Origin: Lytechinus pictus
Lineage: Eukaryota
Length of the DNA stretch: 64,000 nucleotides
Direction of reading: 5' to 3'
Assembly: GCF_037042905.1 (NCBI RefSeq)
Contig: NC_087245.1
Coordinates: 32,552,001 to 32,616,000, forward strand
Positions 2,879 through 44,561 of the stretch are shown piece after piece. The first letter of the stretch is position 1, and the number at the start of each line of letters is the position of its first letter. The position numbers and the translations under genes were made by a program. Under the pieces are notes generated by a model. That model was not told the DNA's origin and ran no database searches. It saw only the letters and a list, made by a program, of their open reading frames with translations.

Positions 2879-5800
2879 TAGTATCCCGTAATTAGTAACC
2901 AACTGGAATAAAATTATTGGAAATGGTTTTTTGACTGATTTGAGTAGGTATGAGTGTCAACATTTACCAAAAAAAAGTTAGGAGGAATACGGGTTGGGGA
3001 AAGTGCTTTTTTTCAAGGTCAAAGGTCAATGACCTTTTTAAATATACTGTATCATGGTATCTCCCAGATAAAATATTACAGGTTGGTGATCATGGTGTCA
3101 AAATGCACAGATTCTTACAAGAAGATCAAATAAAATCAAATCAAGTACCTACAATGCTCATTCACCCATGAAATTCAAGTTCAAAGCCTTTCAAAGTTCA
3201 ATGACCTTTATTACATTATATACCATATACGGTATAATGGTATCTCTGAGATGAAAAGGTGCAGGTTGGTGATCTAGGCGTCAAAATGCAGAGGTTCTTA
3301 CAGGAAGATCAAATAAAATCAAATTAAGTACCCAGAATGCACATTAAACAATAAAGTTCAAGGTCAAAGCCTTTCAAAGGTCGATGACCTTTTTCCTACA
3401 TTATATACCATATACGGTATAATGCTATCTCTCAGATGAAAAGGCGCAGGTTGGTGATCTTGGTGTCAAAATGCAGAGGCTCTTACAGGAAGATCAAATA
3501 AAATAGAATCAAGTACCCGGCCAGAATGCACATTAAAGTATAAAATTCAAGGTAAAAGCCTTTCAAAGGTCAATGACCTTTTTTACATTATGTATCATAC
3601 TGTATAATAGTATCTCTGAGATGAAACGGCACAGGTTGGTGATCGTTGTATCAAAATTCCCAGATTCTTACAGGAAGGTCAAATAAGATAAAGTTAATCA
3701 CCTAGAATGCATACTAACCCATAAAGTTCAAGGTCAAAGGTCAGTGACCTTTTTACATAGGCTATATATCGTATAAAGGTATCTCTGAGATAAAACGCTG
3801 CATGTTGGTGATTTTGATGTCAAAAAACAATTTTTGCAAGAAGATAAAAAAGACTCTAAATAATCATACAGAATAATCCAATATCCAAAGTCAAAAGTCA
3901 AAAGTTGATTAATATTTATATATCCATGCATGATTCCCCCAAAAAAGAAATTAATCCATTATATTCACATTTTATTTGTGAATAATAGAAAGAAAGATAA
4001 CTATTTGTAATGAACACTTGGAAGTCTAATAATTTCACTCTGAAAGAAATAAGGATAAAAAATGGCCATGGAAAATATATTTAGGAGTTAAAGGTCAATC
4101 AACTATGTCAATAGCGTCAGGGAATTTAAATAAATAGGTCGATATAACGTGATTGTGGCATGTAGGTATAGTGATTCTGATGGGAAAAAGACTGACCTGC
4201 GTGGAAAAAGAACACAAATTTAATAGTTGAATCCTTGACCAATGATGATGTCAAAATACAAGTTCGAGGTAAAATTGGATCAAATAGCACTTTTTCTTAT
4301 AATATACTGTAATGCATTGACAAAAGTGTAAAAAGAAAATCATGTGTGATATAATTTGAAATGGTGACAATGGTGAAGTTACCTAAAGTAGCAGAATTTA
4401 GATATGCATTTTATAAATCTAAATCAAGGTACTAATTTCTCTGTAGCAATAGGTCACTAACCTCAAATGCTACAATCAATACTATAACACTATAACTTAA
4501 TCTGTAAATGGAAAGGATAGGCCTAAGTCTTATGGCAAGCATCATCCGAGAACATTTTCATATAGCCAGGGACAATGACGAAGAATTAAAATAAGGCAAT
4601 CATTAGAGCTGCAGCTTTTTTGTCATAGATGAAGTTAAGTGTCTCAACTTCAACAAAGAGTAATTGAACTCTTGAAAACCTTCTGACATTTTCAAGACTT
4701 TGATCTGGCCCATTCAATGAAAGCCTAACGTTCTGTCAAGGGATATCAGACCAGGATCTATATTATTACTGATAATTGCACAGCTTGATTCTCAAGAACT
4801 GGAAGTGGTGCTGTATGAGTTTTGTTAGGTCGATGGATGTGTACTTGTAAGCTATTATCTCCTTTTGAATTTCATTGTTATATGCCTAATTTGTGCATGA
4901 TAACAATCAGTTGTTCTGGACCAAAAACATGATCCTTGTACAAACTGATACCTAGTAGAAATAGCATCATGGGTGACGTACGGCAGAGAGCAGATATGAA
5001 GTTTTGTCTTGCAGCATTAGCATCACAAGAGATTCTGGCAGCTCGCAATGAACTGATGAAATGTACTAATAATACGGGAATTCACTTTTGTTGAAGTTGA
5101 TATATATATAATTTACTACATGTATATGACAGAAGCTGCAGCTCTAATGATGGCCTTCATTTCATCATCATCATCATCAAAAGACACGACAACCTTGATT
5201 TAGATATAATGATGCATTAAATGCTGCTACTTAAGATAAAATTAATTCAAATTATATACTTGATTTCATTTATTTTTTCAGTGCTTTTGGCAATGCATCG
5301 TATATGAAAAAGTGTTATTTGGTTATCAACTTTTTTAACTTAATTTCCACTGATATTTTGGAAAGGGCTCATTGACCTCTGACCCCTAAATACATTCTCC
5401 ATGGCCTTCATTATTTCAGACCGAAATTATGAAACCTCCATGTTTTCATTACAAATTAGCCATGGTTTTTTACATTATTCAGATATAAAATATGAACACA
5501 AAAGATATTGTTTTTGGTTATTTTTATATCATATAGATTATATATTTCCTCTGATCTAGGATTTCAAGGGTGAGTATTCTTTATACTTATTTTAGTGTTG
5601 TTTAATCTTCTTGTACAAGTCTTTGGATTTTGGCACCAAGATCACCAACCTGCGGTGTTTTATCTCAGAGATACCATTATTATTATCTAATGTTAAAAAG
5701 GACATTGACCTTTGTCCTTGAATTTTATGGGTGAATGTGCATTCTCGATGCTTAATTTTATTTTATCTTCCTGTAAGAATATGCGTGTTTTGACACAATG

Positions 5801-6375
5801 AACACTAACCTGCACCGTTTTATCTTAGAGATACAATTATATAATATGGTATATGTAGTATAAAAGGTCATTGACCTTTGGCCTTGAATTTTATTGGTGA
5901 ATGTGCATTCTAGGTACTTAAGTTTATTTTATTTGATCTTCTTGTAAGAATCTGTACATTTTGACACCATGATCACCAGCATGTACCTTATCATCTCAGA
6001 GATACCATTATACGGTATGGTATATAAAGTAAAAAAGGTCATTGACCTTTTGAAAGGCTTTGACCTTGAATTTTATAGGTGAATGTGCATTCTAGGTCAT
6101 TAATTTTATTCTATTTGATATTCTGGTAAGAATTTGTGCATTTTGACACCATTATCACCAACCTGCGCCTTTCCATCTCAGAGATACCATTATACAGTAT
6201 GTACGAAAAGGTCATCGACCTTTGACCTTGAAAAAAAGCACTTTCCCCAACCCGTATTCCTCCTAACTTTTTTTTGGTAAATGTTGACACCCATACCAAC
6301 TCAAATCAGTCAAAAAACCATTTCCAATAATTTTATTCCAGATTGGCTCTTTTGGGGTCTAATTTAGGGATACTA
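2879..6375. mobile_element. Non-autonomous foldback DNA transposon, Academ-like
   Basis: Termini tagtatccc...gggatacta with tag on both flanks. Long imperfect TIRs are built from ~180-bp tandem units containing aaaggtcaatgacc. Inner inverted pair at about 4600 and 5140. It interrupts the RT motif ENY|RPVSL. Confidence 0.85.
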
Positions 6376-6770
6376 TAGGCTAGTTTTCTGGTTTTGTACG
6401 ATCTGTGAATGGGAGTGACATTACGCCAGTCTTCAGCTATATGTCCTGTGTTAACAGAAGCTTGAAATATTTTGGCAAGAATCGGCGCGACTTCATGGAA
6501 AAATTCCTTAAGAATACGAGGAGGTATTTCATCCAATCCCAGTTGCTTTCTTAGGGTCTAGATTCCTCAAGAGTTTTTCAATGCCGGGGGTGTGAATGGT
6601 TATGTTACTTATACCAGGAATATTACGTGGAGGGAAGTTTGGTAAAGTCTGCAAGTTTTCTGTCGTGAAAACTGATCATTAAGAATATCAGCTTTCCGGC
6701 TGTTCTCTGAAAAGAGAATGCCTTTTTCCTTATCTTTTAGTGCTAGAATACCCGAAGAGTCTTCTTGGAG
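6376..6770 (-). pseudogene. LINE RT fragment (5' part), continuous with 2490-2878
   Basis: KADILNDQF, DEIPPRILKE...VAPILAKIFQAS...WRNVTPIH...KPEN. Confidence 0.85.
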
Positions 6771-7225
6771 TGGACCTAACCCCTTTTGCAACCAAACTCT
6801 TCTGAAGAGCTCATTTGTCAAAAGGGGTTAGGTCCATTTTGTTTAATAAATTTTATTGTTTTCTGTCTCAAAACCTATATAGATTTTTAGTCGCTCTAAT
6901 GATACCAAAGAAAATTTGAAATTCATATTAAAACGTGAATGAAAGGGGCAAAGAAAAATAACTTTTTTATTCAAAAGAGATTGGATTCATTTCAGTTTGC
7001 TTGCAAAAGGGGTTAGGTCCACAATGATAATTTTTGGAAAAAATATGTAGAAAAAAAAGTGAAGACAGGTAAATTTATTTTATACCCAATTTTATGTTCA
7101 CATGATAGGGTAATACATCATGACAAGTTTCTCATTAGAATATTGCAATAAGTGAGAATTAAAAAACATGATTTTTCTCGGAATGGTCCAAAGTAGACCT
7201 AACCCCTTTTGCAACCAAACTCTTC
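6770..7225. mobile_element. MITE-like element with GAAGAG...CTCTTC ends and a repeated ggacctaacccctttt motif
   Basis: The motif occurs in both orientations at about 6772, 6820, 7005 and 7195. Confidence 0.6.
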
Positions 7226-18250: not shown

Positions 18251-18674
18251 GGCCCGAATTCACAAAGGTTTTGAAAACCCACGGTTGAGTCCATGGTTTA
18301 TGCAGATTTCCTGTATAAATTACGCTTACTTTACCGCGTATCGGGCGCGTGTATAAAAAATGTCCAATGCTGATGCGCGCTTTTGTCACAGTGCGCCAAA
18401 TTGACGCCTATTACCATGGTTAGATACGCTATTTTATGCATGAGTCCACCGTTTTTATTCATGAGTCCACTCTTCAAACAGTGGACTCATGAATAAAATA
18501 GCCATGGTAACAGGCGTCAATTTGGCGAACTGTGACAAAAGCGCGCATCAGCATTGGACATTTTTTTATACACGCGCCCGATACGCGGTAAAGTAAGCGT
18601 AATTTATACAGGAAATCTGCATAAACCATGGACTCAACCGTGGGTTTTCAAAACCACCTTTGTGAATTCGGGCG
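18251..18674. mobile_element. Near-perfect ~420-bp palindromic MITE (PIF/Harbinger-like GGCCC ends)
   Basis: gcccgaattcacaaagg ... cctttgtgaattcgggc, with arms of about 190 bp that are nearly identical. Confidence 0.85.
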
Positions 18675-19425
18675 AAAGGGAACGTCCTTAGAAGCAAAAA
18701 TGAAATATTTTAAAGATAAAATAACCTCAGAATACCACCTCGGAATACCGCCACTCGTCTTTCCACAGAGCCTTTCGAAATTGTCATTGAAAATACGGTT
18801 GTATTGTTAGACCAATTCCGAAGATTGCAGATAAACATTCTATTACAAAATTAGATCTTTAGGATCACTGTTACAATTGCCAAGAATTCAATTATATCAT
18901 CCTTCTAAAACCACCTAAAGGTGCATAGTTGCGTCCTTTTAGGTGTCACATTGACATTACCTAAAAAAAAGAAATTATAGCTTTGCTTTTTTTTATTATA
19001 ATGAATGTAATTTTTGCACCTTCGTTTCTAATGGTGCAGTGTGACCGTAGGGTGATCGTATCATGCTAATCCCACGAACTCACTTGGGTGACGTTCGGCA
19101 ATCGTACAAGTTTCGAGAAAGATTCGTGATCGTCGATAGGTCTACGATTTTCTTCTACGCGGAGGTATAAACTTTTTTGCAAAAAAAATCTTAAGTTCAT
19201 AGCCTTTAACGCATCGCTGGGTCATCACGGTCATCGTAAGATCATTTTTTTTTTTTTTTTTTTGTAATAGTATTTATTAATCATGTGATGGCGCTCTCGT
19301 AACAAGAACAGCAAATTATCCGTCTCTCCTGATTTTCACATTGTTTTGAGGTCTAAATTGCAGTTATATGCAGGATTACCAACCAAGGACAACTACATAA
19401 CGTTCCTAATCTTATATTGGATAAG

Positions 19426-20421
19426 ATGTCTTACGACCTAAGAAAATCTCAGAAGGGAAAGCCTACAAAAACCACTGGATCTGTACCAACGAAAAGGCCA
19501 AACCCATTCTCGCACAACATGTACAAAGCTCTACCGGATCAGCTTACCCCCAGCCAGAGACCTGGGGAGCCAAGCCAGGTAAGCAGCCCTGCCAACACAT
19601 CCGTGATTACACCTGTTAACGGAACTAACACCTCTACGCCTGACCGCACATTCCAAGATCAAGACTTCGAACAATCTAAATTGGATTTATTCCTAACAAA
19701 GAAATTCGAAGCTATGCTTGAAAGGGCTGTTGATCGGCTTGCTAAGAAGATTGAAGCTGTTGAGTCACTTCTAGGGGATTCCCTGGAATTCGAGCGACAA
19801 AGGGTCAATGACCTTCAGGTCAAACAAAATCATCTAGAGACCAGGATCAAGAACTTGGAAGAAGAAGTGGCAAAGAACGGAGCCGCTACTAACAAATCGG
19901 AACGATTCTCCAGGAGAAATAACATTCGTCTGGTTGGGATCGACGAGTATCAGCAACCAACATCTCTTCCCGCCGATAGCGCATCTTCATCCGATAGTTC
20001 ATCAGCTTCTGAACCTCACCAGGAAGATTGCATCACGCTAGCCGAAGACAAACTACGATCTTTCTTTGGTATTACGTCGAAAGTTGAACGAGCTCATCGT
20101 GACGGTAGGAAAACCAACGGAAGACCTCGTCACATTCTTGTGAAGCTTCTGTCATATCGCGATAAAGTTGATGTAATGAAAAGAGCTCGCTCCGTTCTGA
20201 AAAACCAGAGTTTCTTCATCATCGATGACCTTACCAGCGCTGACCTCCAGGAAAAACGTAAATGGTCCAAACAGGTCCAGGCCCTTTACGCCCAAGGAAC
20301 CAAATTGCGTTTTTATGCAGGAAAATGGCGACTCCGTGGAGGTGACCCTTTCAATTTTGAGTCTTCATCCGACGACACCTCTCGCATCACAACCATTGGT
20401 CACGCTGGAGTAGTGTTCTAA
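19426..20421 (+). CDS. LINE ORF1 protein (L1-ORF1/Transposase_22-like: coiled coil, RRM, CTD), 331 aa from the first ATG
   Basis: Heptad region followed by SRRNNIRLVGI, VERAHR, PRHILVKLLSY.DK and FIIDDL. The ORF is uninterrupted. Confidence 0.88.
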   Translation: MSYDLRKSQKGKPTKTTGSVPTKRPNPFSHNMYKALPDQLTPSQRPGEPSQVSSPANTSVITPVNGTNTSTPDRTFQDQDFEQSKLDLFLTKKFEAMLERAVDRLAKKIEAVESLLGDSLEFERQRVNDLQVKQNHLETRIKNLEEEVAKNGAATNKSERFSRRNNIRLVGIDEYQQPTSLPADSASSSDSSSASEPHQEDCITLAEDKLRSFFGITSKVERAHRDGRKTNGRPRHILVKLLSYRDKVDVMKRARSVLKNQSFFIIDDLTSADLQEKRKWSKQVQALYAQGTKLRFYAGKWRLRGGDPFNFESSSDDTSRITTIGHAGVVF

Positions 20422-22555
20422 TTTTCTCAACCCGCTGTATGAACCAAGGTTAGTTTCAATCTCCCTGTGACGGCAACGTTCCTTCTTCTTTTTTGCAAAT
20501 ATACATAAAGAGATTAACGTTTTCACCTTTGTTTTTTTCCTTTTTTTATCGCTATTCATTTCGATAATGAGATATCATCCTTCTCAAGTGATTAATTTTA
20601 GTCTCCGAATCATCTGAAGACCCGTGGTTTTGATTTTTCGTGGGATGTTTACAACTTGGTCACTGAGATCTCGGACTATTATCACGATTATACAATTATT
20701 ATCAATAACTTCCTCGATCGTTCTTAAGACGGCATGATTGAATTTTATCTTTTCGCATGATTCATGTGTTTTCGCATTCATGATTTTCCTCCAGGTCAAT
20801 TAAGCCTCAAGTACTTTTTTTTGCAACAATGATGTCGACTCCTTGAGAGAAAATTTGATGTTCTTTTTGATTTTGATTCAACTATAATTATGTCGAGAAG
20901 AAATAACTCGATGTTCGTTATAATTTTGCTATGACAATATGCATATCCTCGATCTGGATATCAATGTTATTATTCGTATAAATGGTAAAAAGGGGAAACT
21001 GCTTTTTTATATTTCACTCTCTATAACATCTAAGTGCTGTTAGTGGATATTTCAATTAAAGAAGGCCTACCATGTACTAAATCATTCTTATCTCGCCTAT
21101 ATACGATCTATTTAATTGGCACCCTTTCACCAATAGGCTCTACTTTTATATTTCCCAACATTGATCCGTTTTTTATGCATCTAGATACCTTATTCGTTTG
21201 CATGTTGTGTGTTCACCTAGCTTTAGGTTCAAGCCTGAGGCAAACCATAAATTTATAAATCGAAATCATAACTGAATCGCACAAAAAATCTCGTTCATCA
21301 AAAGTAGTTTATGTTGCTTATTAATATAATTCATGTATAAATCACTTACACGGATGTTTGTGTGAGTGTGCTTTTAAGTCCTAGTATGCACCAATTCTAA
21401 ACAATCTAGCTACACTACTTTAGTCTTATTAAGCAGTTAAGGGTGGATGCAGGATCTTACACACTCTGATTTACCGGCCATCAATCATTTGTATTCATTT
21501 AATGTAGAATCGTTATTCCACATGATGTTGGCATCTGTTTTTTGTTTGTTCTTTTTGTAATATGTGCAATCTAATCACTTATATACACTGGTTTTATTGT
21601 TTTCCTTTCTCGTACGTTCATGATTTTCTTAAAATGAGTCGATTAGAAACCACATGCGCTTTAGCACCGTGTTTACAAAAGACATTGACACGATAGAGGC
21701 ATTTACTTCATAATTTCTCACAACTTGAAAAGTCTTCCTACCAAATTTGAGAAATCACAATGTTGAAGCTTACAGGGTATGATTGTCTCTTTTTCATGTT
21801 CATCCAATCAAAGTGTCAACGAGATCCAATATATAAAAAGTGTTTACTTTCTGATTGATATCAATTGCCATCTATTTTGAACAGAATCACGCATCTCCTT
21901 TTCACGTTGGTCATCAGTATTTGTTTTATGTTCTATTGGTACAGTTTTCCCCACTTCGAACATGCTGCTTTGTAATTTCTCTTCCCCGTTATAATATATC
22001 TGAATTGATCAGTAGCAAATAGCTATTTGCTATATACTACGTTTTATTTTCCTAAAATCATACTCAATTTCAGTAAAATCAAACTCATGGCTACGCGCCT
22101 CTTGTTACTTCTATCAAGACACCTATACTGTTTTATCGCCCAAGGTGTGCTTGACGTTAAGCTTGATGTTCATCCAATTTTAAGTTTTATCAGGAACCAA
22201 ATTTGCAAATTTGTTATATAAGGTTAATACGACTAATTGAAGTACACTTCATTGCTAATTTGCTTACTACTCCTTGATACGGATAACACATTTTGCAGAT
22301 GTCTCCTTTTGTATTCATTACGCACCAGCAAACTTGACAATATAGGCTACATCAGAAATTGAACTTTACTGAATTAATCGTGCTTGGAGCGCGAAGCCTT
22401 ATCATTGGCTTGCCAATGACCTCCTTGTCTCTTTTGTTTGGAAATGACTCATTAAAGGGTTAAATGCAGTGAATTGTTATTTTATTTGTCAATTCAATAT
22501 CAGTGACGAAGGGAAACTCCCTGGTCATATATATTTTGGACTTATCGAATTTACC

Positions 22556-22828
22556 GCGTAGAGGCTCCCTGCATCGCGCCGGTTCCTTGGGGTGCAGTTC
22601 GGGTCGCGGTGGGGAGCTGTGAGGCTTTTGCCGGGGGTTGGTGGACCGGGACAGCACCGGAATCTCCAATTCTGGGTGGCGACATGTTTGCGTCTGTTCG
22701 TGTGGTGCAAATATTCGAATTTTCTGCTGTCCCGGTCCGCCGGCTTTCGGCGGGAGCCTCGGGGCTCTCCGCTGCGACTCTGGCTGCATTTGCAGAAGAA
22801 TCGGTGCGTTAATGAGCTTCGCCTGCGT
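22556..22828 (+). ncRNA. Long G-U-rich RNA stem-loop in the LINE inter-ORF spacer
   Basis: 22591-22656 pairs without gaps with 22725-22790 (45 WC, 19 G-U, 2 mismatches, counted by hand). There are further outer helices and two apical hairpins. Confidence 0.8.
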
Positions 22829-23534
22829 CCCTGCAGTGAATTTGAGAACTACCTAGATCTTGCATCGTTAACACAATCTTTAATCATTGCAATGTTTTGG
22901 TTCTTTTTAATATTTTGCCTCTTGTTTTTTCCCTGAGAACCACTTACCACTGACGTATATTTACGCAATGATTTTTTGTATGTATATTCATATGATCGAT
23001 CTTTCTTATTCTACATATCATACAGGCTTAAATCCTGCTTCCTGCTTTGTTTTTTTTTTTTTTACTATTTAGCTTTCTCCATTTGATATGACCTCGTTTG
23101 TTATTTTTGATAGATTTCATCACGCTTCAGGAGAGACGGACACAGTATGATTATTATTTTTTTTCTGTCCTTGCCTTAGTTTGCTTACTTACGTTCTTGT
23201 TGATATTTGTTGCTTGTTTGTTTACATTTGGCCTATTTTAAGTTATTCACTAAGGATCAGTCAAGTTTGCTTTGTTTTCATTTTTGTCCTGTTTTTCATC
23301 ACCTTTATTTCCAACCCCCCCTCCAAACTTTGCACTGCACAAGGTCATTATATATCTCACACTAGTGTTCAATTCCCCTGCTTTATTTTTGTTCTTTCTT
23401 CTTTTACTCCTCTTTTATTGCCTTTTCACTGACACACATTTTTTTTTCTCCTCTTCTACACATACTCGGGAACAGGCACGTAGCACAGTGTATTGCTTCC
23501 TTTAGGTTTCGTTTACCCACCATCTCCCCTGCTA

Positions 23535-26500
23535 ATGACGGATTTTTCTAGGTTTCCATTTAGCTCTCTAAATAACGATGACTTGTTGTCTCTCTCGGCG
23601 CAACATGGCGTTACTCGCACACTAGATAACCATGATAACTCCAACTATGATGCACACATACAGAATTTTATGGACAATAATACATCCGATCTTAATTACA
23701 ATTTGGATGCAAATGATCACTTCGGACAGCTCACTACATCACATTATTTCACAGAACAACATTTCAAATCATACATTACATCAGATAACACTGGCGAAAG
23801 TTTTTTTCTTCTCCATTTTAATATCAGAAGTGCCAGTAAAAACTTTGATAAACTTAGACTATTTCTAGATAAAAACCGGTTTCCGAAATCTTCATTTATT
23901 GGTTTAACCGAAACATGGTTCTCTGATTATCCATGTTCCCTCTTCACACTCCCTGATTTTGATTTGATTGTTAACAATAGAACGCTAAGACCTGGGGGTG
24001 GTGTAGCTCTTTACATACCGCAACAATACGACCATACTCTTATAGCTAACATGACCATATCTAACGACGTTCTAGAAACCTTATTTGTTGAAGTCACAAA
24101 CCCCAAAGGTAAAAACTTAGTACTTGGTGTTTTTTATAGACCCCCTCAATCTAATGTTAATACTTTTTTAGAATCTCTTAATGAAATTTTATCAAATCCT
24201 GTTTTGAAAAATAAAGATTGCTTTTTTATGGGTGACTTTAATATTAACTTAGTAGATTGTAATTCAAACAGCACCTCACATGAGTTTCTTGAAATGTTTC
24301 TTTCATATTCTTTTTTACCGCTTATCACTAAACCGACAAGAGTGACAGATAACTCGGCCACTTTAATTGATAACATTTTTAGTAATATAACTCAACAAAT
24401 TCCCAAAGCCGGTATTATCCTTAGTGACATTACTGATCACTTTCCAATTTTTGCTAAATTATCTACAAATAAAATTATCATGAAAGAAGCATTCAATACT
24501 CCATTTCGAAAGATAACTGATGACAACATAAACAATCTAGTTAATAATTTAAATACAACAGACTGGTCAACTGTTTTTGAATCCACAGACGTTGATGACG
24601 CATATAACTTTTTCATTTCCAAATTAAACTCTTCTCTAGATACTCACGTTCCTTTTACCACTAACAGAAAATCAAATTATAAAAAGGTTCCACTCCACCC
24701 TTGGATTACTAAATCACTTTTGAGATCAATCAACCGAAAGAACAACCTTTACTATAAATACATAACTAAACAAAGTAACGAATCTCGCTTTAAATATACT
24801 TCATACAAAAACACACTCACTACTTTATTACGCATTGCAAAAAGAGAATATTATACCTCCCAACTCAATTTGTTCAAAAACGATATGAGGAACACATGGA
24901 AAATCATTAATGGAGCATTAAACAAAAACAAAAAAAGTACTTCTATAACAAAAATAAAAGTAAACAATACAACTACCGACGACAACATCTCAATAGCACA
25001 AGAATTTAATTCATATTTTTCAAACATTGGCAACAATCTGGCAAGCAAAGTCCCTCAAACTCATAAATCTTTCAACAGTTTTCTTGACAACCCAAATCCA
25101 AACTCTATATTTTTTAATCCTACGAACACAAGAGAAATTATTAATATTGTTAATAATCTACAGACCAAGAAGAGCCCAGGTTTCGATGGTATTCCTAATT
25201 TCCTACTTAAGAAAATTATTTTAACTATCGTCGATCCTCTGGTCCACATATTTAATGTTTCTATGAACACAGGGAAGGTACCTAACCTAATGAAAATAGC
25301 CAAAGTCATCCCCCTTTACAAAAAAGGTGATAATCAACTTGTTTCTAATTACCGTCCTATTTCATTGCTCACTTCGTTATCTAAAATTCTCGAAAAACTT
25401 ATACATACTCGTACAATTACGTTCTTTAATAAATTCAATACTTTTTCGAACTCGCAATTTGGTTTCCGCGAAAATCATAGCACCTCGCATGCAATTTTGA
25501 CTTTTATTAATAAAATTACTTCTTCCATAGATATAGGTTGTCATACTGTTGGTATTTTCCTGGACTTCTCCAAGGCCTTCGATACCATTAACCACGATAT
25601 ACTTCTTCATAAACTTTCTTTTTATGGTATCAGGGGGAAGGCCTTGGAGTGGTTCAAGAGCTACCTAACAGACAGGTCTCAATTTGTGTCAGTCAACAAC
25701 GTTGTTTCTTCTACTCTTCCTATTACATGTGGAGTACCACAGGGTAGTTTACTTGGTCCTCTTCTTTTTATTACATATATTAATGACATTAAAAAAAGTT
25801 CAAATTTACTAACATTTGTATTGTTTGCTGACGATTCGAACATTTTCTTTTCTCATGATAACGTAAACCAACTTGTAAGAATTGTAAACTCAGAACTTAT
25901 ACATGTCACTGACTGGATTAAGGCGAATAAACTATCACTTAACTTACAAAAGACGAATTTTATGCTTTTTAGTAACAGAATAAATACAATACCTGACAAC
26001 ATAATTTTTGATAATACTGTTCTTGAAAATGTTTCAGAGACAAGATTTTTGGGGGTTACTATTGATAATAAGCTATCATGGAAACCACACATCAATAATA
26101 CATGCAAAACAATTTCAAGAAACATCGGAATTATCAACAAACTCAAATATTTTCTCCCATCTCACACTTTACTTACACTGTATCATACATTAATATTACC
26201 ATACATTAATTATGGCATTTTGGCATGGGGTTGTGCGATCCAAACACAATTACAAAGAATACTGTTGCTGCAGAAGAAGGCTCTTAGAATAATTTTTCAA
26301 ACCCAATTCAGATCACACACAGATATACTATTCTTCCAAAATAATATTCTTAAAGTGAGTGATTTATATCTTTTCCAACTCGCCCAATTTATGTATAAAC
26401 TAAACAAAGATGATCTCCCAACAATTTTTTCAAATATGTTCTGTAAAAACTCCTCTATACACGATTACCCAACGAGACAACGTAATTGTTATCACCTACC

Positions 26501-26672
26501 CCCTACCCGTACTATATTAGCGAAAAACTCTTTTATCTTTTTTGGACCTGTGTATTGGAATTCCCTGCCCAACGACTTTAAAGAATCTACAAACCTTAAT
26601 ATTTTTAAACGCAAACTTAAAAAGATGCTCATTTGTCAATACTCCACACCAACAAGTCAAGCTAACACATAA
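23535..26672 (+). CDS. LINE ORF2: APE endonuclease and reverse transcriptase, 1045 aa from the first ATG
   Basis: EN motifs NIRS, LTETW, GGGV, YRPP, GDFN, IDNIF, TDHFP. RT motifs NYRPISLL, QFGFR, DFSKAFDTINH, GVPQGSLLGP, LFADD. No stops or frameshifts. Confidence 0.97.
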   Translation: MTDFSRFPFSSLNNDDLLSLSAQHGVTRTLDNHDNSNYDAHIQNFMDNNTSDLNYNLDANDHFGQLTTSHYFTEQHFKSYITSDNTGESFFLLHFNIRSASKNFDKLRLFLDKNRFPKSSFIGLTETWFSDYPCSLFTLPDFDLIVNNRTLRPGGGVALYIPQQYDHTLIANMTISNDVLETLFVEVTNPKGKNLVLGVFYRPPQSNVNTFLESLNEILSNPVLKNKDCFFMGDFNINLVDCNSNSTSHEFLEMFLSYSFLPLITKPTRVTDNSATLIDNIFSNITQQIPKAGIILSDITDHFPIFAKLSTNKIIMKEAFNTPFRKITDDNINNLVNNLNTTDWSTVFESTDVDDAYNFFISKLNSSLDTHVPFTTNRKSNYKKVPLHPWITKSLLRSINRKNNLYYKYITKQSNESRFKYTSYKNTLTTLLRIAKREYYTSQLNLFKNDMRNTWKIINGALNKNKKSTSITKIKVNNTTTDDNISIAQEFNSYFSNIGNNLASKVPQTHKSFNSFLDNPNPNSIFFNPTNTREIINIVNNLQTKKSPGFDGIPNFLLKKIILTIVDPLVHIFNVSMNTGKVPNLMKIAKVIPLYKKGDNQLVSNYRPISLLTSLSKILEKLIHTRTITFFNKFNTFSNSQFGFRENHSTSHAILTFINKITSSIDIGCHTVGIFLDFSKAFDTINHDILLHKLSFYGIRGKALEWFKSYLTDRSQFVSVNNVVSSTLPITCGVPQGSLLGPLLFITYINDIKKSSNLLTFVLFADDSNIFFSHDNVNQLVRIVNSELIHVTDWIKANKLSLNLQKTNFMLFSNRINTIPDNIIFDNTVLENVSETRFLGVTIDNKLSWKPHINNTCKTISRNIGIINKLKYFLPSHTLLTLYHTLILPYINYGILAWGCAIQTQLQRILLLQKKALRIIFQTQFRSHTDILFFQNNILKVSDLYLFQLAQFMYKLNKDDLPTIFSNMFCKNSSIHDYPTRQRNCYHLPPTRTILAKNSFIFFGPVYWNSLPNDFKESTNLNIFKRKLKKMLICQYSTPTSQANT

Positions 26673-27079
26673 CCTAAACTAAAACTACATAATAACTTAA
26701 CCTTTAACTGCCAATACATTTGTCAAACTTTACTTATAAAAAAAAACAACAACACTGCAACATGATACAATACATTACGACCTGTGCACCTGCCATGTTC
26801 CTCCTTTCATTTGCACTTTTTATTTGCACCTCCCTTATCTCCCTCTTTCTTTCCTTTGCCACTTTTCCCTCCCTATTATGATTTTGTAAGTACTTTTCTT
26901 TGGTGTTACCACTGTAATTATTATTATTTGAATTACTTTCTCTTATTTTTGTTGTCGCTTATTCGTTTTATTTTGATATTTGTGGATTACTTGTTTTAAG
27001 TTTGTCTTCTGTGTCCGTCTCGATTTTTGTATAGAGTTGTATTTATAGTTTGTTTATAATTAGTATTGAAACTAAGTTT

Positions 27080-27126
27080 AGGGGCTTGCCTTCTCTACAA
27101 GCTTTTGCTTTTCTTGGCAAGTCCCT
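27080..27126 (+). other. 3' UTR stem-loop of the LINE (putative RT recognition signal)
   Basis: aggggcttgcc ... ggcaagtccct pairing, about 190 nt upstream of the tail. Confidence 0.6.
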
Positions 27127-27408
27127 CCGTTCTTTTCTTGTTTCTTTTCATTGATAATATTACTGAAACAAATTGTAGTTTTGTTTAATTTATATTCAAC
27201 ATTTGTTACGAAATTTCATTGATTTGTCTGTATTATCGATTATATTGAATATGTATTGTTACTTTGATTATATTTTGAAAAAATTGTTGAACGGAAATAA
27301 AATCTAAATCTAAATCTAATTAAAATCATTCAATTCAAATTCATACAAGTAATATAATATCAACAAAACACTGTTCACAAAGTCAAATAAATAAATAATT
27401 GTTCATAA

Positions 27409-28124
27409 TGCCTAGTTGACACTTTCACGATTTTTGGTCCCGCACTGCCCCGCAATGAATGCGTGCCAGTGCGTGACACTTTATGGCACGACTTGGCTAT
27501 ATCAGTTCACGCAATGTCCCGACACGTTCACGACATGTTTGCGCATTGTTTGCGCATAGTTCGCGCATAGTTCACGCAGTGTTCACGCACTGTCCCGACG
27601 TGCTTTCAGCAAATATTCTCGACACCCTATTTCTGTGACGTATCTAGCGCAAATTTAAATATTCAACGTTCTGGTGTTGACACCCTCTACGTTCGTTGAT
27701 TAGAACGACTCACATTGATCACGTGGTCTGCACTCACAATTTTGCGCATGTCATGCGCGAACTATGCGTGAAGTATGCTTGACCTATGCGCAAAGTATGC
27801 GCGACCCTGTCGTGAACTAGTCGCGAACTGCGTGCCACTACCCCGGGGGTGGGGTACCCACTGTTTTTACGCCACGCACTGGCACGCATTGGCACGACTT
27901 GTTTGCGCATAGTTTGCGCACAGTTCACGCACTGCTGCAATGCGGGAAGTGCGTGGCAAAATTTTCAACATGTTGAAAATTTTTTTTCGCTCTTCACGCA
28001 TTGCTGCGCATTGCCGCTCATCGTCCCGCCCCTTCCCGCAAGTGTCGACGCATTGGCACGCATGACGCAATATCAGTGCGTGAACTATGCGGGAACCGAA
28101 AATCGTGAAAGTGTCAACTAGGCA
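27409..28124. mobile_element. PIF/Harbinger-type MITE with TAA TSD
   Basis: taa|tgcctagttgacactttcacgatttt ... aaaatcgtgaaagtgtcaactaggca|taa. Confidence 0.92.
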
Positions 28125-28447
28125 TAATACAAAAAATTATACATACAAAAAATACAGAATATAACATTCGAGTCATCTACAACAAAGTAAATACTTAGTC
28201 TGTAGAAAAAAAAAATACAGACAACAACAACAAAAATTTTATAGCAACGCAATTAAATTGAATGAGTAAAATGAATGAGTAACCCCCCCCCCCCCTCCAT
28301 ATCCCATCTAAGCCCAGCCCAGGAAGCGCGGCCTGCTTCCCTCCCCTCAACCTAGCTACCCTCCATTTCAATCTGCATTCTGTGCCGCAATCATGATCTA
28401 ACTTGTGCACCTAAATGTATGCTTGAATTTTCTTAGCCCCAGCATCT

Positions 28448-29673
28448 CTAGAAAATAAACTTGTCCCATTTTTTGAAATGGTTTGTTAATAGACCTCTCT
28501 GTTCAGCTAGTTTTCTTTCTTCTAGTCTATCTTCTTGTATTTTTTCCTTAATATGGTTAAGGGTCGGTGGATCTTTTGTGTTTCTACTATTCTTTAAAAT
28601 CATATACTTTATCAGGATTATTATGTGATTTAATAATTGAGCCTCTCCTTTAGTTGAACATTCCACGCCTACGTGTACACCTTTTTTATCTATATTTGTA
28701 ATGATAGGGAGTTGAAGCATGTTCCCACATTCTTTCCATATAGTTTTTATCTTATCACATGAAAAGAATATATGATCATATGTTTCTTCTTCTTTACTAC
28801 AGAATGAACATAAATCATCTGTTGTCATTTTAAATAAATATAAATATTTTTTTGTGTATAGTATATTGTGTAATATTTTATATTGAAATTCTCTGAGTCT
28901 ACTATTCAGAGTCGATTTTCGTGGTCTTAGAAAAATCTCAGAGATATCCTTTTTTGTTATATTATATTTTTCCTCAAGCTTTTTAAATGCTTGGGGTATA
29001 TCCGATTTCATACTTATAAGAGTATCGTATATTCTTTTTGATGTGATGTCTTGCAAATCAAAAATCCTGCCCTTTAATTGAAAATCCAAAACTAACTCAC
29101 TATCTATGGAACTTTGACCATTTTTTTTCAGCGAGTCCTTCCAAAAGTATGGAATATTATTAAAAATTTCGAGTATATTTTCTATTTCAAAACGATCCAA
29201 CCCCATTTTTTGAAAGGTCGAAATAGACTTCATTTTCCCATCTTTATCTACAATATGATGGAGTTTATAAATTTTCTTCAAAAACAGCTTTTCATTATAA
29301 TATGTTTGTCCTTTCAAACGGATGAACCTATTATTAAAAATGATCTCATTTCTTTTATTCTTCTCTTCTTTAAGTAAAAACAATTTCTTATTAAACCATA
29401 CATCTAACATTTCTGTATAAAATTCCGGCAGTTCAAATCCTATCAAATCCATTGTGAGGTTACTAAAAAAAATTAGCAATCCTCCCATACCGTGTGCTAA
29501 GTATCTGAAATATTGTTTCCATTTCATTTTTGGCTCTCCCATTATAAGTCTTTTAATCCACATAATTCTTTGTGTCTTAATGAATAACTGAAAATCTGTC
29601 ATTTTTAGACCAGCATGATCATAATCTAAATAAACAATGTCTCTTTTAATTTTATCTCTACCACCCCATAAAA
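28448..29673 (-). mobile_element. 5'-truncated Tx1/L1-clade LINE, open ORF2 C-terminus with zinc knuckle; its 3' UTR continues to a poly(A) at about 19247
   Basis: FLWGGRDKIKR...GLKMTDF, LREFQYKILH and CSFC...EETYDHIFFSC. atcatt is duplicated at 19241-19246 and 29674-29679. Confidence 0.9.
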
Positions 29674-30199
29674 ATCATTGCTCGGGTATCAACGATCTCC
29701 ATACGACCTCTGTATGATGTGGTGTCAACCATTCACGGACATTGAAAAATATTCACCAGGCTAAATTTCGTTCACAAACATTCACATTTGATACCAAACC
29801 AGTTCAATTAATAGCTTCCAAATCGACGGCAAGATCGCAAACTGCAAAAATATTGACGAAAAGTATGAAGTAGGTCGAGGGGGTTCGCCGGTATCGCGAT
29901 CTCAAAATTCTATTCCGATCGACGAACGTGCGCTGTGCTGGAAAATCGTTCTGAAAAAATGTGATCTATCTTCGCGGACCAAAGATTTTTAGAGATCTAC
30001 ACAAAACCTCAAAATCAAAAGATGGGATATCTATATCAGATGGACGGCAAAATGTAGAATCGGTCAGCACCTCATTTTACTCACATTTTTTTTTTATATT
30101 ATCTGCTTGCAAAATGATGATATCGTGATGCTTGCTGAGAAGTTACGATTTTTTTCGGAACTATAAATTATTGACGAAAAATATTTTCATGAATACTGC

Positions 30200-39260: not shown

Positions 39261-42200
39261 TATACTACTACTAGTAAAGGTTGTGCTTACTTAGGGTTAA
39301 AATGCTAATTTGGGTGGCAAAGTTGTTACAAAATGTTTAAATATACCTCTTTTTTATTTCAATTGCCTTAAAATGCAAGAAAATGTATGAGAAATGTTCC
39401 GCACGGTTGGTTTGATTTCGCCCTTTTTCCTTGAAACAGCGTAAAAATTGGCATTTCTGCGAATGAAACCGATTCTGCGAGCTTTACAAAAATTGAGAGG
39501 GCTCACTCAAGTGTAAGATTCTGTCAAAACGTTTACTTTCATTTGATAGCTGAGACCCAATCCTATGTGAAAAAATTATCCCCATGTTGTATATTTATCA
39601 ATTCCCATGACATTTTCAAAGCGTAATATTTTTATTGATACGCACTGCATAAACATGATAAACAAGGTGTTCTTAGCCAATCAAAATTTGGGAAGGTTCT
39701 TAGATCTGACAATTTGTCAGACGACAAAATTTATGTTGATACAACGCTCTCCGGGATTCTGCACTGTTGTTAAGGTGGTTTATCAGAGTTAATATTATCC
39801 TGATTATTGTGCAATTATTATGAAGGAAATATATCGAAATGCATTTATCACTAATTATTTCTTTTAATATAAAAATTTCTTTAGGATTAATTGAATAAAA
39901 CAACATTGATTTATTATTTCCAACCGCGTATTCTAAACTGACAATTTTTTTTTCAAATAAATGTTTGCCTTAACAAAAACTTATAGGGGGGGAGCGACAG
40001 TAGCAATAATTGTAGGGAAAGGCAAGAAGGGGGCGAAATGGGGGAGATGGGGTAGGACCAAGAAGCAGACCGAAAGATGGCTGCAGGCATTTTTTATGGA
40101 AAAAAAGATGAGGGCGAAAGAGAGAGGGGGGGGGACCAAACCAAAATATATTTTGGTTATTCTTGTGGTTTATGTGAAAAAAAAATGAATGGATGAATTG
40201 AATTGAATATCTTTGAAAAATCTGTCCCGGAGATATGCTTCATATCCACAATTACGGAATGTGCTGAACAATATAACCGGTTTTCAGGTCAATATAAACA
40301 AAAATGAGCTCGTGCTTTGCTCTCATATTATTTCAGTGAGAAAAGTGTAATGTTCTGTTTTCAATTATACCTCCTCATTCCCCCTTTTCAGGTCAATATA
40401 TTACTGAAATTCACCTTGCGCTCACATTATTTGTTCAATGAGACATGTTCTGGATATATTTTTCAGGTCCATGATTACTTAATGTCCCGTTTTCTGGTCA
40501 ATGCCTCCAAAATATCAGCTCGCGTCGCGCCCATATTATTAATTTACTGAGGTAGGTATCATGTTCATAATTTCTGCAAATACTTCTAAAAAATATCAAT
40601 TTTAAAGGGGTATATCCAAAATTTTCAGGTCTCGCTTCGCGCTCGCATTATTTCTTTTACGAGATACAGTCCTGAAAATAAGATTTATGTTTCCGGTTTT
40701 CAGGTCAATATATATATATATTTATATATATATATGTATATGCTTCCGCATCACGCTCGTATTATTGAAATACGTATCATTTCATCAATATCCGCAAAAG
40801 CGTCATAAAAACAAACTGATCAATGGAAATGTGTTACATGTATCTAAGACAAGGTATATTGTAACTGTAACATAAATGGTATGCTTTGGATATGTTACAG
40901 TGTTGTTTAAATGTTGATTTATTTGTTACCTGGCAGTGTGTCACTATATGGTATGCCATATCCCTAAATTGTGGATTTTGGTACTGTTATTTGTTTTTTT
41001 TAAAGGGAGGGAAGGAACAAGGAGAAGGTTCAAAATTTATTAACATTTATCATGTAACTTTTTTTCTGTTTTGTGGTTAAGGTCCATTAATTCATCACTT
41101 TTACACCAATTTAATATCTATTTATTTTAATTCATGTTTCAAACTGTAGGAAAACAAATGGTTCACTGTTCATTAACATTTTGGTGTGAATTTTGGCTTG
41201 TTTCATGGTTTGCGTTTGTTTTTTGCACTTTTGGCTTGGGCTGTTTTTTTTTTGTATTTGAAGCCCTGAGCTGTGATATCTTGTGCGCCAGCGTGCTCTT
41301 GTTTGTTAGCTTTGCAATTTTTGTTTTTCTCTTTTTGCTTGTTTTTTTTCTTCTAATTATGTCAATTTTTCTTTCTATCACAGTTTACGATCTCATGCAG
41401 CTTCAAAATGATATTATACCCCAAAGAAACGTTTATTTGTATGTTGACAGTCATCTTGTTTCATGCAATCCTGTTATCCCCATATTCTGTAAGATCTTGT
41501 TTAATGGTAATAATATTTCACTATTATGCCCCACCCTAAAATTTTGGATCTAAAATTATGTACTTTTAATTGTCGAGGGATTCAAGATTATGTGAAAAGA
41601 CGTAAAGTGTTTCTTTATTTAAGATCCATCCAAAGTGACATTATTTTTCTTCAAGAAACCCACTCGTTAAAATCTGATGAAATATTTTGGAAACAGCAAT
41701 GGGGTGAAAAAGCATGGTTCTCTAGCTATGCATCAAATAGTCGAGGGGTAGCCATTTTGATCCGGAACCATGTATCCATGGAAATAATATCACTTTACTC
41801 TGATCCTAATGGGAGATACCTGATAACATCTGCAAAAAGTAAATGGGGTGCCCCTTATTTTAGTCAATTTATATGGTCCGAATAATGATGACCCTGACTT
41901 GTTTCTTCAAGTTTTTAGTAAGATAGAACAATTTAATTACACTTCAATGATTTGTGCTGGCGATTTTAATGCGGTTTTAGGGCCTCTGGACTATCAAGGG
42001 GGTAAGGTCACCCATTCAAACAACAAAGCAAGTGAAATGTTATTATTATTGATAGAATAGTTTAATCTTTGTGATATTTGGCGTAATTTTCACCCAAACC
42101 TTAAGCAGTATACGAGGCATCAAAAATCCCCTAAAGTTTTATTAAGACTTGATTTCATTCTTGTTTCAGATAATTTTGTCACTAATTGTGTGCAGTCTAA

Positions 42201-42940
42201 AATAGTTCCAGGAATTCAATCTGATCATTCTCTTGTTATTCTAAAATTTAAAGACGCTCAACCAGTAAGGGGTCCAAGCTTCTGGAAACTGAATTGCAAG
42301 TACTTGCACAATGATGTAAATTTTATCGAAAGTGTTAAAGAGAAAATTGAAGAGTTTAAATTAATTCATTCTGCAAGTGATTGTAACCCCAATATTTTAT
42401 GGGACTCTCTTAAATGTACAATTACCGGTACATGTATAGAATACTGTGCACGCAAAAAGAAAGAAAATAATTTAGCGAAAAGACATCTTTTGAAAGAAAT
42501 AGAAGATATAGATAATAAATTAAGTATTGATTTAGACAATGATGAGCTTTTTAAAGAAAAAGAGTTTTTACTGCAAGCATTAAATGACATCTTAGATGAA
42601 GAAACTCAAGGTTTATTTATTCGTTCTCGAATCCGATAGGCTGAAGAAGGAGAAAAGAGTTTCAAATATTTTTGTAATCTTGAAAAACGAATGGGAGAGA
42701 AGAAAAGAATTTTTAAATTAAAAAACAAAAACAATGATATTATTGTCAATCAACCCACAATATTGAAAGAAATTCATTCATTTTACGACACATTGTATAT
42801 GAAGCCATGCAATGCTGATAATTCAGATGAATCAAGTAATGTAATTAATCATTTTTTTGCAATCTATTGTAATTCCACAGATAAGTGATGTCGATAAGGA
42901 TTTTCTTGAAAAGCCTATTTCTAAAAAGGAACTATATGAT

Positions 42941-43128
42941 AATAATAATAATAATAATACACAGTTCTTGTATAGCGCATATCACAATTATGAATAATGT
43001 CTCTATGCGCTTCCAAAGGACTTGGATATTATTACCCCAGCTGTAGCTTGGCAGCCGTAATTACTAAGATTACAGCGCACACGCATTTCAAGGAATAAAT
43101 TCCTGCCAGGTACCCATTCACCTCACCT
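42941..43128 (-). mobile_element. 5'-truncated SINE with (ATT)n tail inserted in the Tx1 ORF2
   Basis: (aat)n tail, core aatgggtacctggcaggaa on the minus strand, tatgata on both flanks. Confidence 0.8.
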
Positions 43129-44159: not shown

Positions 44160-44561
44160 AGCTAAATGATATAGTTGCAGTAAAACACTAATTTCGTGAG
44201 AAAGTCTGTAAAACCAAGTTTAAGTATGACTATATCATCGTGGATCTAGATCTGGTACAGTTAAATAAACTGAACTTTGTGAAATCATAAAATCTAAGCT
44301 GAAATACGATCACACTGAAGATCGCCAACAGCCCAACACAGATAGGCACACGTGGGACAGTGTATTATTATTGCTGGAATAAAGACCCTACGGAAGTGAC
44401 CGAATCCGCGCTTATTTTGCTTATTTCTCAGCAATTACACATTTTCTTCCAGAATCCTTTGGCACATATTTTTTATTCATACAAACAGACACTTGGGTGG
44501 TCATTATATTAGATTCTGTAAAAAGTCATTTTGAGATCGTTACCAGAACTGGAATTTACCT
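44160..44561. mobile_element. TTAA-flanked MITE (same family as 16957-17351) inserted in the Tx1 ORF2
   Basis: Removing it plus one TTAA restores KVKLK-SIESTLNCWRAR. Confidence 0.92.

Follow-up and report, generated by a model that had tools for sequence, protein, structure and literature searches.

How the second open reading frame (ORF2) of LINE elements is translated is treated as an open question in the available text of two earlier reports (PMC3894237, PMC5381506). In the L1 elements from fish, from frog and from lizard clade 2, the inter-genic region measures 257–1,032 bp; the report describing these vertebrate spacers (PMC5381506) found no common structure among them, and an IRES was proposed and left untested. 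L1-type ORF1 proteins are already known from CR1/L2 elements, and the Daphne and Crack elements of the CR1 group are not monophyletic (PMC4120745 and PMC13343379, respectively, both in part). Further precedents, again in the accessible parts of the sources, are the spliced integrated L1 copies known as SpIREs, which are mostly dead ends and are located in the 5' UTR or ORF1 (PMC5860796), and, in avian retroviruses, the hyperediting of RNA from A to G by ADAR (Felder 1994; Hajjar and Linial 1995, cited in PMC8586724).

In this article, we describe an intact LINE from Lytechinus pictus, found in a stretch of 64,000 nt that was analysed as a whole and is referred to as the window. Its 3.1-kb spacer and very stable stem make scanning from ORF1 to ORF2 implausible, and the embryos are accessible. 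Since spacer and stem set scanning aside, an IRES, splicing and an internal promoter should be cleanly distinguishable in this system.

Architecture and affiliation of the element

Both ORFs are uninterrupted on the same strand and 3,113 nt apart (Table 1), and the intervening sequence is non-coding, as the preliminary description had claimed: the gap contains 50 ATGs, the longest plus-strand ATG-initiated frame in it has only 44 codons, Pfam searches of the three longer stop-to-stop frames gave zero matches, and a Pfam search for a protein hidden in the spacer or the stem was likewise without a match. The aatcat duplication proposed to bracket both ORFs is present on either side; by chance, a given 6-mer recurs within 10 offsets in 0.5% of trials. 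A contig end resembling the empty site joins the two flanks directly. At the 3' end, AATAAA (27296–27301) is followed by (AAATCT)3 at 27300–27317. The CpG o/e ratio is 0.8–0.9 across both ORFs.

Table 1. Features of the locus, with positions counted from the first letter of the window
Feature	Position	Strand	Basis
Older host LINE: AATAAA and poly-A end, interrupted by the element	19245..19284	-	sequence
5' target-site duplication, aatcat	19279..19284	+	sequence
5' UTR, short, 141 nt	19285..19425	+	dataset X7 piece begins at 19300
ORF1, L1-type (Type II), 331 aa; contains coiled coil, RRM and CTD	19426..20421	+	homologue profile
Non-coding inter-ORF spacer, 3,113 nt, T-rich, inherited with the family	20422..23534	+	contigs, depth
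115-nt piece absent from the X7 family contig	20449..20563	+	contig comparison, splice scores
Long GC-rich RNA stem, 120 pairs including 30 G.U	22545..22845	+	folding
Gapless stem core	22587-22656 / 22725-22794	+	folding
ORF2 leader, 684 nt, U-rich (45% T), weakly structured, 6 short uORFs	22851..23534	+	sequence, folding
ORF2, 1045 aa, APE endonuclease and RT; lacks a C-terminal zinc knuckle and a 2A motif	23535..26672	+	Pfam
3' UTR: stem-loop ~27080-27126, AATAAA, (AAATCT)3 tail	26673..27323	+	sequence, folding
3' target-site duplication, aatcat	27324..27329	+	sequence
Older host LINE, remainder: 5'-truncated L1/Tx1-like ORF2 piece and 3' UTR	27324..29674	-	Pfam, sequence

The element interrupts an older LINE on the minus strand within its 3' UTR; the ORF2 piece of this host LINE (29674–28448, minus strand) carries a zf-RVT domain, and its own duplication, atcatt, is found at 19241–19246 and 29674–29679. 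This nesting, like the long stem, goes beyond the preliminary description.

A Pfam search with ORF1 alone gave nothing above the cut-off; a profile built from 48 homologues matches human LINE-1 ORF1p (2YKO/2YKP, E 5e-9; 2LDY, 4e-5), and the protein combines a coiled coil, an RRM and a CTD homologous to L1 ORF1p, which defines Type II (L1-like) ORF1s. ORF2 contains RVT_1 (E 7e-38) and Exo_endo_phos (E 5e-5, 0.8 bit below the cut-off), and most of its close homologues have the same two domains, endonuclease and RT; no zf-RVT was found in it by Pfam. At least 90% of 34 aligned proteins share its first methionine. A 2A signal, D(V/I)ExNPGP close to the start of ORF2, was looked for, and NPG is absent from every plus-strand frame of the element and the motif from all 240 homologous proteins. 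Elements of the CR1 group are defined by the lack of a C-terminal zinc knuckle and by a tail of short tandem repeats instead of poly-A. The present element has an APE endonuclease and RT, no zinc knuckle and a tandem-repeat tail, and its 5'-truncated copies outnumber the full-length ones; membership in the L1 clade was rejected, as both the ORF2 zinc knuckle and the poly-A tail are missing. In a comparison made by eye, the RT motifs match those of Daphne/Crack; the RTclass1 references compared were CR1-21_SP, CR1-14_NV, CR1-23_BF and Crack-1_NV (PMC3708506, in part). The element is a LINE of the CR1 group, probably Daphne-like, carrying an L1-type ORF1, and the earlier assignment of such an ORF1 to a CR1/L2-group LINE is borne out by the profile match and the two ORF2 domains. 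In viral contigs, ORF1 had zero matches and ORF2 only two distant bacterial-type RTs, and a metagenome scan returned four loci, which belong to another clade or are fragments.

The spacer in other copies of the family

A contig from dataset X7, which derives from another organism, spans 19631–22977 and joins ORF1 to the spacer, and a contig from a second dataset, X1, spans 22379–24758 and joins the spacer to ORF2; no one record covers the whole element, whose unity rests on overlapping contigs. Contig depth in X7, which reflects copy number only roughly, is log-linear over seven pieces across 8 kb (r2 0.998) and climbs from 74 to 1927 toward the 3' end; fitting a step where ORF2 begins gives only x0.79. 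Compared with an independent dataset, ORF1 has 4 differing letters in 940. In X12, depth in the middle of the spacer (~18–21) is about tenfold lower than over ORF1 (184–289), so that ORF1 may be associated there with several diverged spacers.

We are confident that this is a single young, multi-copy LINE family in which the 3.1-kb spacer is copied as part of the element. The youth of the family, proposed earlier, agrees with the copy number, the near-identical ORF1 and the smooth 5'-truncation gradient, and the co-occurrence of ORF1, spacer and ORF2 in other copies follows from the bridging contigs of two organism labels and their common gradient. The possibility raised in the preliminary description that the spacer would resolve into secondary insertions holds insofar as it contains a probable captured repeat, but that insertion predates the family and is inherited along with it.

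Gaps of 1,946–5,818 nt also separate the ORFs in four other, distant CR1-group LINEs with L1-type ORF1, which means that the layout recurs; it is present in a second CR1-group lineage. Repeat libraries that join only adjacent ORF1 and ORF2 may consequently split such families. Searches of the open-access literature yielded neither a paper on multi-kb spacers in the CR1 group nor one on captured repeats that ADAR has edited within LINE copies.

Routes to ORF2 and origin of the stem

Reinitiation by scanning from ORF1 to ORF2 would have to pass 50 AUGs and a stem of -185 kcal/mol, which is implausible. Because scanning is barred in this manner, an internal start of ORF2 on the unspliced RNA appears to be the likeliest route; reached by exclusion, it is a tentative choice to which we give a little less than an even chance, with 22851–23534 as the candidate region. 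The preliminary description had argued that the family needs another way of expressing ORF2, by an IRES, splicing or an internal promoter: the need stands, but none of the three is singled out. None of the six uORFs in the leader reaches the ORF2 AUG, acceptor-like sites are also present, the leader folds no better than shuffled sequences, and it has no meaningful Rfam match, to an IRES or otherwise. The following candidates were discarded: two sub-threshold Rfam miRNA matches, taken as chance; a uORF relay onto the ORF2 AUG, where no uORF ends; long-range pairing between the end of ORF1 and the beginning of ORF2, which is at background level (14 of 34 windows are equally good); and a SART1-type coupling, given how far the ORF1 stop lies from the ORF2 start.

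A doubtful though still sizeable possibility is that the spacer is mostly an intron, removed from a donor at 20449 to an acceptor at 23506, such that ORF2 is reached by ordinary reinitiation and the unspliced RNA is packaged and copied. Retroviruses similarly use a spliced pol or env message and package unspliced RNA, with a parallel in the foamy viruses. The predicted splice would leave 56 nt between the ORF1 stop and the ORF2 AUG, and an AUG at 20439 is in frame with ORF2; by generic splice-site frequencies, the donor ranks first among 166 GT sites of the spacer but the acceptor only 14th of 109, and X1 contigs cross the latter unbroken. Acceptor-like sites of rank 1–5 lie within 300 nt of ORF2 in seven of eight other elements scored. 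A spliced RNA with the same 3' end should nevertheless be copied, and yet no ORF1-to-ORF2 joint is among the 15 joints listed, with 26 more beyond that listing; moreover, depth just upstream of ORF2 in X7 is only about 20% under the trend. The 115-nt deletion in X7 starts exactly at the donor, but the deleted piece terminates in CG rather than AG, and the X7 lineage is still abundant without this donor. The piece is possibly a mini-intron lost via spliced RNA, and a pyrimidine tract precedes its end. The raw RNA run, with 139 reads of which 11 are at least 99% identical, is too shallow for splicing, editing and RNA ends, of which no pile-up was reported.

The stem of about 300 nt has a z-score of -11.5 (none of 100 shuffled sequences reaches its stability) and a folding energy of -185.5 kcal/mol on the plus strand versus -113.2 on the minus strand. 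Its 70-position core has 46 Watson-Crick pairs, 20 G.U and 0 A.C, and a strand-neutral stem finder gives 17:0 here, as against 74:73 for the 33 inverted repeats in the rest of the window. Compared with related reads, this copy shows A>G at 17 of 22 sites, all with A in the reads and G here, T>C at 5/18 and G>A at 1/9 (A>G against T>C, p 0.004), a direction that rests on 60 read-consensus letters with agreement of 0.71 and 0.81. Such an excess of A>G on the sense strand of a duplex is characteristic of ADAR hyperediting; however, at seven of the 12 sites that changed the partner is C and not U, which editing alone leaves without explanation. As to the preference of ADAR for certain 5' neighbours, among which G is avoided, 13 of the 15 As that remain in the stem follow G or C, and UA occurs 0 times versus 3.3 expected, which equals the general TA depletion. 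Depth in X12 reaches 3208 at the stem arm (22631) versus 18–83 in the flanking bins; X1 has this peak as well, X7 lacks it, and X21 reads cover both strands. The arms are inverted; MITE ends and a TSD could not be delimited, and there is no second copy within the 64-kb window. We consider that the stem is probably a captured inverted repeat, presumably a small DNA transposon, that would have been edited by ADAR and fixed by reverse transcription. Non-coding RNA cargo had been suggested previously, and the stem is the one structured cargo found, but it looks like a captured and edited repeat.

In an unrelated LINE (L077), a captured MITE differs from its 17 sister copies by A>G at 19/59 and T>C at 1/61, the sisters having 0–5 A>G. 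Stems elsewhere are a tandem array (L049) or a microsatellite (L057), and three spacers (L036, L017, L058) have none. After one of 11 spacer stems (L057, 5602–5725, 22 G.U) was dropped as a TG/TA microsatellite, the remaining ten gave 71:17; four of them lie in the L049 array and are therefore non-independent, and the best stem of L034 is unbiased (8:6).

It is unlikely that the stem is instead a selected RNA element common to related LINE families, serving as a scanning barrier or an export or packaging signal, with G.U pairs as compensatory intermediates. Other repeats match its core at 22614–22666 to at least 85%, in contrast to the flanks, both in-stem variants listed (22622 A>G, 22631 C>T) preserve pairing, and the C partners at seven of 12 sites fit this reading; but relatives of the stem are absent from the loci examined, the stem pattern has 0 matches in viral contigs, other long-spacer LINEs carry unrelated stems or none, and the sole polarisable case, the L077 MITE, has a pure A>G bias.

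A more far-reaching reading, which we regard as quite unlikely, is that marine-invertebrate LINEs with L1-type ORF1 repeatedly uncoupled ORF2 by an undescribed route, their multi-kilobase spacers being heritable recorders of RNA editing in which ADAR and reverse transcription together drive captured inverted repeats stepwise from A-U through G.U to G-C, the resulting stems being retained for the function of shutting off scanning into ORF2. The route would be either a novel element for internal initiation or an ORF2 mRNA spliced in retroviral fashion, only unspliced RNA being copied.

It is improbable that a separate capped ORF2 mRNA arises from an internal promoter located within the GC- and CpG-rich stem or behind it, with ORF2p mobilising the full-length RNA in trans via the 3' stem-loop. 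The stem region has 59% GC and a CpG o/e of 1.06, but the ratio is 0.8–0.9 in the ORFs too; the depth deficit upstream of ORF2 is in the right direction, but ORF2-only RNA predicts a shared 5' end and a large depth step, and neither is seen. Recurrent loss of ORF1 in the CR1 group (PMC13343379, in part) would be compatible with this route. Finally, a chimera of ORF1 and ORF2 from different elements, with unrelated DNA or later insertions between them, could account for the X12 dip and the lack of a single spanning record but is very improbable and already largely refuted by the overlapping contigs, the smooth gradient, the shared TSD and the empty-site-like contig end.

Proposed mechanism and relation to known systems

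Our combined explanation, i.e., one family with a captured, edited repeat and internal initiation of ORF2, has in our judgement slightly better than even prospects. The spacer would have captured a GC-rich inverted repeat ahead of the spread of the family, and this repeat would fold into a long duplex within the LINE RNA, where ADAR would turn A into I; the element's reverse transcriptase would write these edits back as G, so that genomic A-U pairs became G.U pairs. ORF1 would be translated from the 5' end and ORF2 from the conserved AUG that follows its U-rich leader, on unspliced RNA that would also be the template copied. Because initiation of ORF2 would be independent of the ORF1 stop, spacer length would be free and repeats could accumulate. 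The stem indicates that a LINE can probably carry RNA edits into the germ line and have them fixed family-wide, an inherited mutation route described mainly for viruses in the literature examined.

The following comparisons refer to the available parts of the sources. SART1 has a UAAUG stop-start (PMC3708506, PMC3894237), and TAATG is also found at the ORF2 start (23533–23537); unlike in SART1, the upstream frame has no AUG and runs into a stop at 23503, and the end of ORF1 is 3.1 kb distant. As in SpIREs (PMC5860796), the precise 115-nt deletion of X7 starts at a splice donor, but it affects the spacer and is carried by the dominant contig of the family. Clustered sense-strand A>G changes in the RNA of a reverse-transcribing element are shared with the hyperedited avian retroviruses, whereas the present element is non-LTR and its changes are fixed in a germ-line family across organism labels. 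The vertebrate long-gap L1 elements (PMC5381506) likewise combine an L1-type ORF1, a short 5' UTR and a T-rich spacer but belong to another RT clade, and our spacer is three times the longest reported. Within the CR1 group, the Daphne/Crack elements that carry a Type II (L1-like, Tnp22) ORF1 (PMC4120745, PMC13343379) have the same ORF2 type, with APE and RT but no zinc knuckle, L1-type ORF1 and tandem-repeat tail; we found no mention of a spacer in the available text of PMC13343379 and PMC7140322, whereas the element described here has an inherited 3.1-kb spacer with a long G.U-rich stem.

Element structure and inheritance of the spacer

Both reading frames of the CR1-group LINE at 19285-27323 are uninterrupted on the forward strand, as the preliminary description had it, and the 3,113 nt between them hold no credible ORF: the longest forward-strand ATG frame has 44 codons, and ATG occurs 50 times. 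The candidate aatcat duplication proposed there does bracket the element, with copies at 19279-19284 and 27324-27329, and the L1 type assigned to ORF1 holds up, as human LINE-1 ORF1p is recognised (E 5e-9) by a profile built from 48 homologous proteins. A record labelled Lytechinus pictus holds an identical ORF1 protein, and those relatives that are named are echinoderm. ORF2 contains RT and endonuclease domains (a domain search found no zinc knuckle), and at least 90% of 34 proteins in an alignment share its starting Met. The RT resembles Daphne-labelled entries in part 5/51 of the RTclass1 file of PMC3708506, a likeness judged by eye, the RT tree holding no named reference sequences.

Features of the window and ORF1-ORF2 gaps at four other loci
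Feature	Position	Strand	Description
ORF1	19426-20421	+	open frame, 331 aa
Spacer stem	22545-22845		GC-rich hairpin
ORF2	23535-26672	+	open frame, 1045 aa
Stem in RT domain	25550-25665	+	GC-rich, in AT-rich ORF2; z about -8, -44 kcal/mol
3' UTR		+	stem-loop, AATAAA, (AAATCT)3 tail
MITE-like element	27405-28128		in host LINE 3' UTR; 37-nt terminal inverted repeats, internal 11-nt repeats
Second L1/Tx1-like ORF2	42061-45784	+	broken into several frames
Palindromic element	18252-18673		near-perfect, best arms 94/94 pairs; control
Palindromic element	63231-64000		near-perfect, best arms 122/123 pairs; control
L034			gap to ORF2 frame 5,247 nt
L049			gap to ORF2 frame 5,818 nt
L057			gap to ORF2 frame 5,509 nt
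L036			gap to ORF2 frame 1,946 nt

The element lies in a minus-strand L1/Tx1-like LINE that is itself 5'-truncated (zf-RVT frame 29674-28448); the insertion site falls in the 3' UTR of this host LINE, just before its AATAAA and poly-A at 19245-19278. One contig end in sequencing run X1 joins the left-flank match straight to the right flank, an arrangement that resembles an unoccupied target in a sister copy of this LINE. The stem in the RT domain has nucleotide-level matches from related families far above those elsewhere and a depth peak in runs X7 and X12; it is possibly a conserved RNA structure within coding sequence.

Four of the 23 listed runs were compared with the element. In X7 (probably DNA, organism B) a single 3,211-nt contig reaches from ORF1 across the spacer as far as 22977; its ORF1 part shows 19 differences, its spacer part 100 as well as 78 gap letters. 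A single contig of X1, a run from organism A that is possibly RNA, covers 22379-24758 with 19 differences. The two overlap, and no single record spans the whole element. The spacer is part of the element. Contig depth, a coarse measure, is log-linear in X7 over seven listed pieces, declining from 1927 (3' end) to 74 (5' end; r2 0.998), and a fit that permits a step at the ORF2 border yields only x0.79. The copy is young, as had been proposed for the family, because its ORF1 differs from X1 at only 4/940 letters. In X12 (organism C) the middle of the spacer has about 1/10 the depth of ORF1, so ORF1 may there be common to several diverged spacers.

The spacer stem and its G.U bias

The spacer stem, absent from the preliminary sequence-only reading, has 120 pairs at -185.5 kcal/mol (z -11.5; 0/100 shuffles equally stable), compared with -113.2 kcal/mol for the region folded as the opposite strand. 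Its gapless core (22587-22656 / 22725-22794) comprises 46 Watson-Crick, 20 G.U and 0 A.C pairs plus 4 other positions, unlike a decaying DNA palindrome, where decay should yield G.T and A.C equally. A strand-neutral finder gave 17:0 for the stem against 74:73 in 33 other inverted repeats of the window, and therefore the bias originated in, or was selected in, sense RNA.

In run X21, reads from related sequences match 22614-22666 only; the ends that hang loose are homologous to the stem arms but carry A where the window shows G. Polarised on 60 letters only, the stem differs from these reads by A>G at 17/22, T>C at 5/18 and G>A at 1/9; C is the pairing partner at seven of the 12 changed sites. 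Stem-arm depth in X12, 3208 at 22631 from 12 contigs, is far above that of the flanks, as a high-copy repeat would give; X7 has no depth peak at the stem, and terminal repeats or a TSD of the stem could not be delimited.

Ten stems in the spacers of other LINEs, not all of them independent, total 71 G.U to 17 A.C after removal of one microsatellite. The one that can be polarised, at locus L077, is an inverted-repeat element of ~270 nt lying 5' of ORF2; numerous sister copies are present in G001. On the LINE sense strand it differs from 17 sister copies by A>G at 19/59 and T>C at 1/61 (p 3e-6); the sister copies carry 0-5 A>G each. ADAR editing that reverse transcription then fixes predicts such an excess; clusters of A>G within duplexes are described as an ADAR hallmark in the available text of PMC2873906.

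Routes to ORF2

ORF1 and ORF2 do not overlap, and no uORF reaching the ORF2 AUG, no pairing bridge between the ORF1 end and the ORF2 start, and no 2A motif in ORF2 were found. Fifty AUGs and a stem this strong would block scanning. Three routes are left, namely internal initiation, splicing and an internal promoter; the earlier claim that ORF2 needs another route stands to this extent.

We tentatively propose internal initiation on unspliced RNA, at somewhat below an even chance; it fits because there is no depth step and no listed ORF1-ORF2 joint. The U-rich leader 5' of ORF2 is unstructured by folding, and an Rfam search returned nothing meaningful. A raw RNA run contributed 139 reads, too few to decide between routes, with no joints; its ORF1 reads all lie in the orientation that sense RNA should give.

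Splicing of the ORF1 region to ORF2, removing most of the spacer, is rather unlikely, although the top spacer donor (rank 1/166) lies at 20449, exactly where a 115-nt deletion in X7 begins (a coincidence noticed after the fact, with a chance of about 2 in 3,350 positions), and a 20449-to-23506 joint would leave a 56-nt gap and place the AUG at 20439 in the ORF2 frame. However, the deleted piece has CG at its end, the donor is gone from the X7 lineage, which is still abundant, the acceptor at 23506 ranks 14/109 by generic matrices, and spliced copies should accumulate. An internal promoter making an ORF2 RNA is improbable, as it predicts a large depth step and none is seen.

Other LINEs and known systems

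Eighty loci (L005-L084) were taken from a scan of prokaryote assemblies, whose animal-type LINE contigs we infer to be contamination. An ORF1 matching the same L1-type profile occurs in four of the 80 (L034, L049, L057, L036), with RTs 35-38% identical to that of the element. Because these four RTs group in a separate 10-row clade (support 100/100), long spacers are present in at least two lineages of the CR1 group. Adjacent ORFs are seen in seven other loci, three with an esterase ORF1; the gap in L017 is 896 nt, and in L001 and L002 an L1-type ORF1 abuts an ORF2 of another clade.

Several observations stand apart. Animal-type LINE ORF2s are encoded on dozens of contigs (L005-L084) in metagenome-assembled genomes of bacteria and archaea, probably as host contamination. 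In the distant LINEs L001 (1575/1576) and L002 (1329/1330), ORF2 continues in frame after a TAG stop with no nearby AUG and a common post-stop motif, a possible case of stop-codon readthrough; in-frame stop junctions are also found in L026, L027, L030, L055 and L075. The spacers of L049 (about 3300-6800) and L034 (about 4500-6300) contain long arrays of direct repeats that have diverged from one another; those of L049 are self-complementary. In L034, L049 and L057 conservation begins at a pyrimidine tract plus AG just 5' of the ORF2 frame, with unalignable DNA upstream, an edge that could be a splice acceptor or the border of a translation element. L013 (3722-5179) is a LINE with a NADAR domain in its first frame (Pfam E 1e-23).

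Nothing is unusual about the family, its ORF1 type, its 5' truncation or the nesting; Type II ORF1 was known before in CR1 and L2 lineages, according to the accessible part of PMC4120745. The available portions of the open-access literature (including PMC13343379, PMC7140322 and PMC5860796) yielded no precedent for an inherited 3.1-kb spacer, nor for an editing-like signature shared by a whole family in a probably captured stem; Repbase and subscription papers may already hold such consensus sequences. A>G clusters are also reported for avian retroviruses, as cited in the available text of PMC8586724. For vertebrate L1 with spacers of 257-1,032 bp, internal initiation is proposed in excerpts of PMC5381506 and PMC3894237; the spacer described here, at 3,113 nt, is three times the longest found in the accessible part of that literature.
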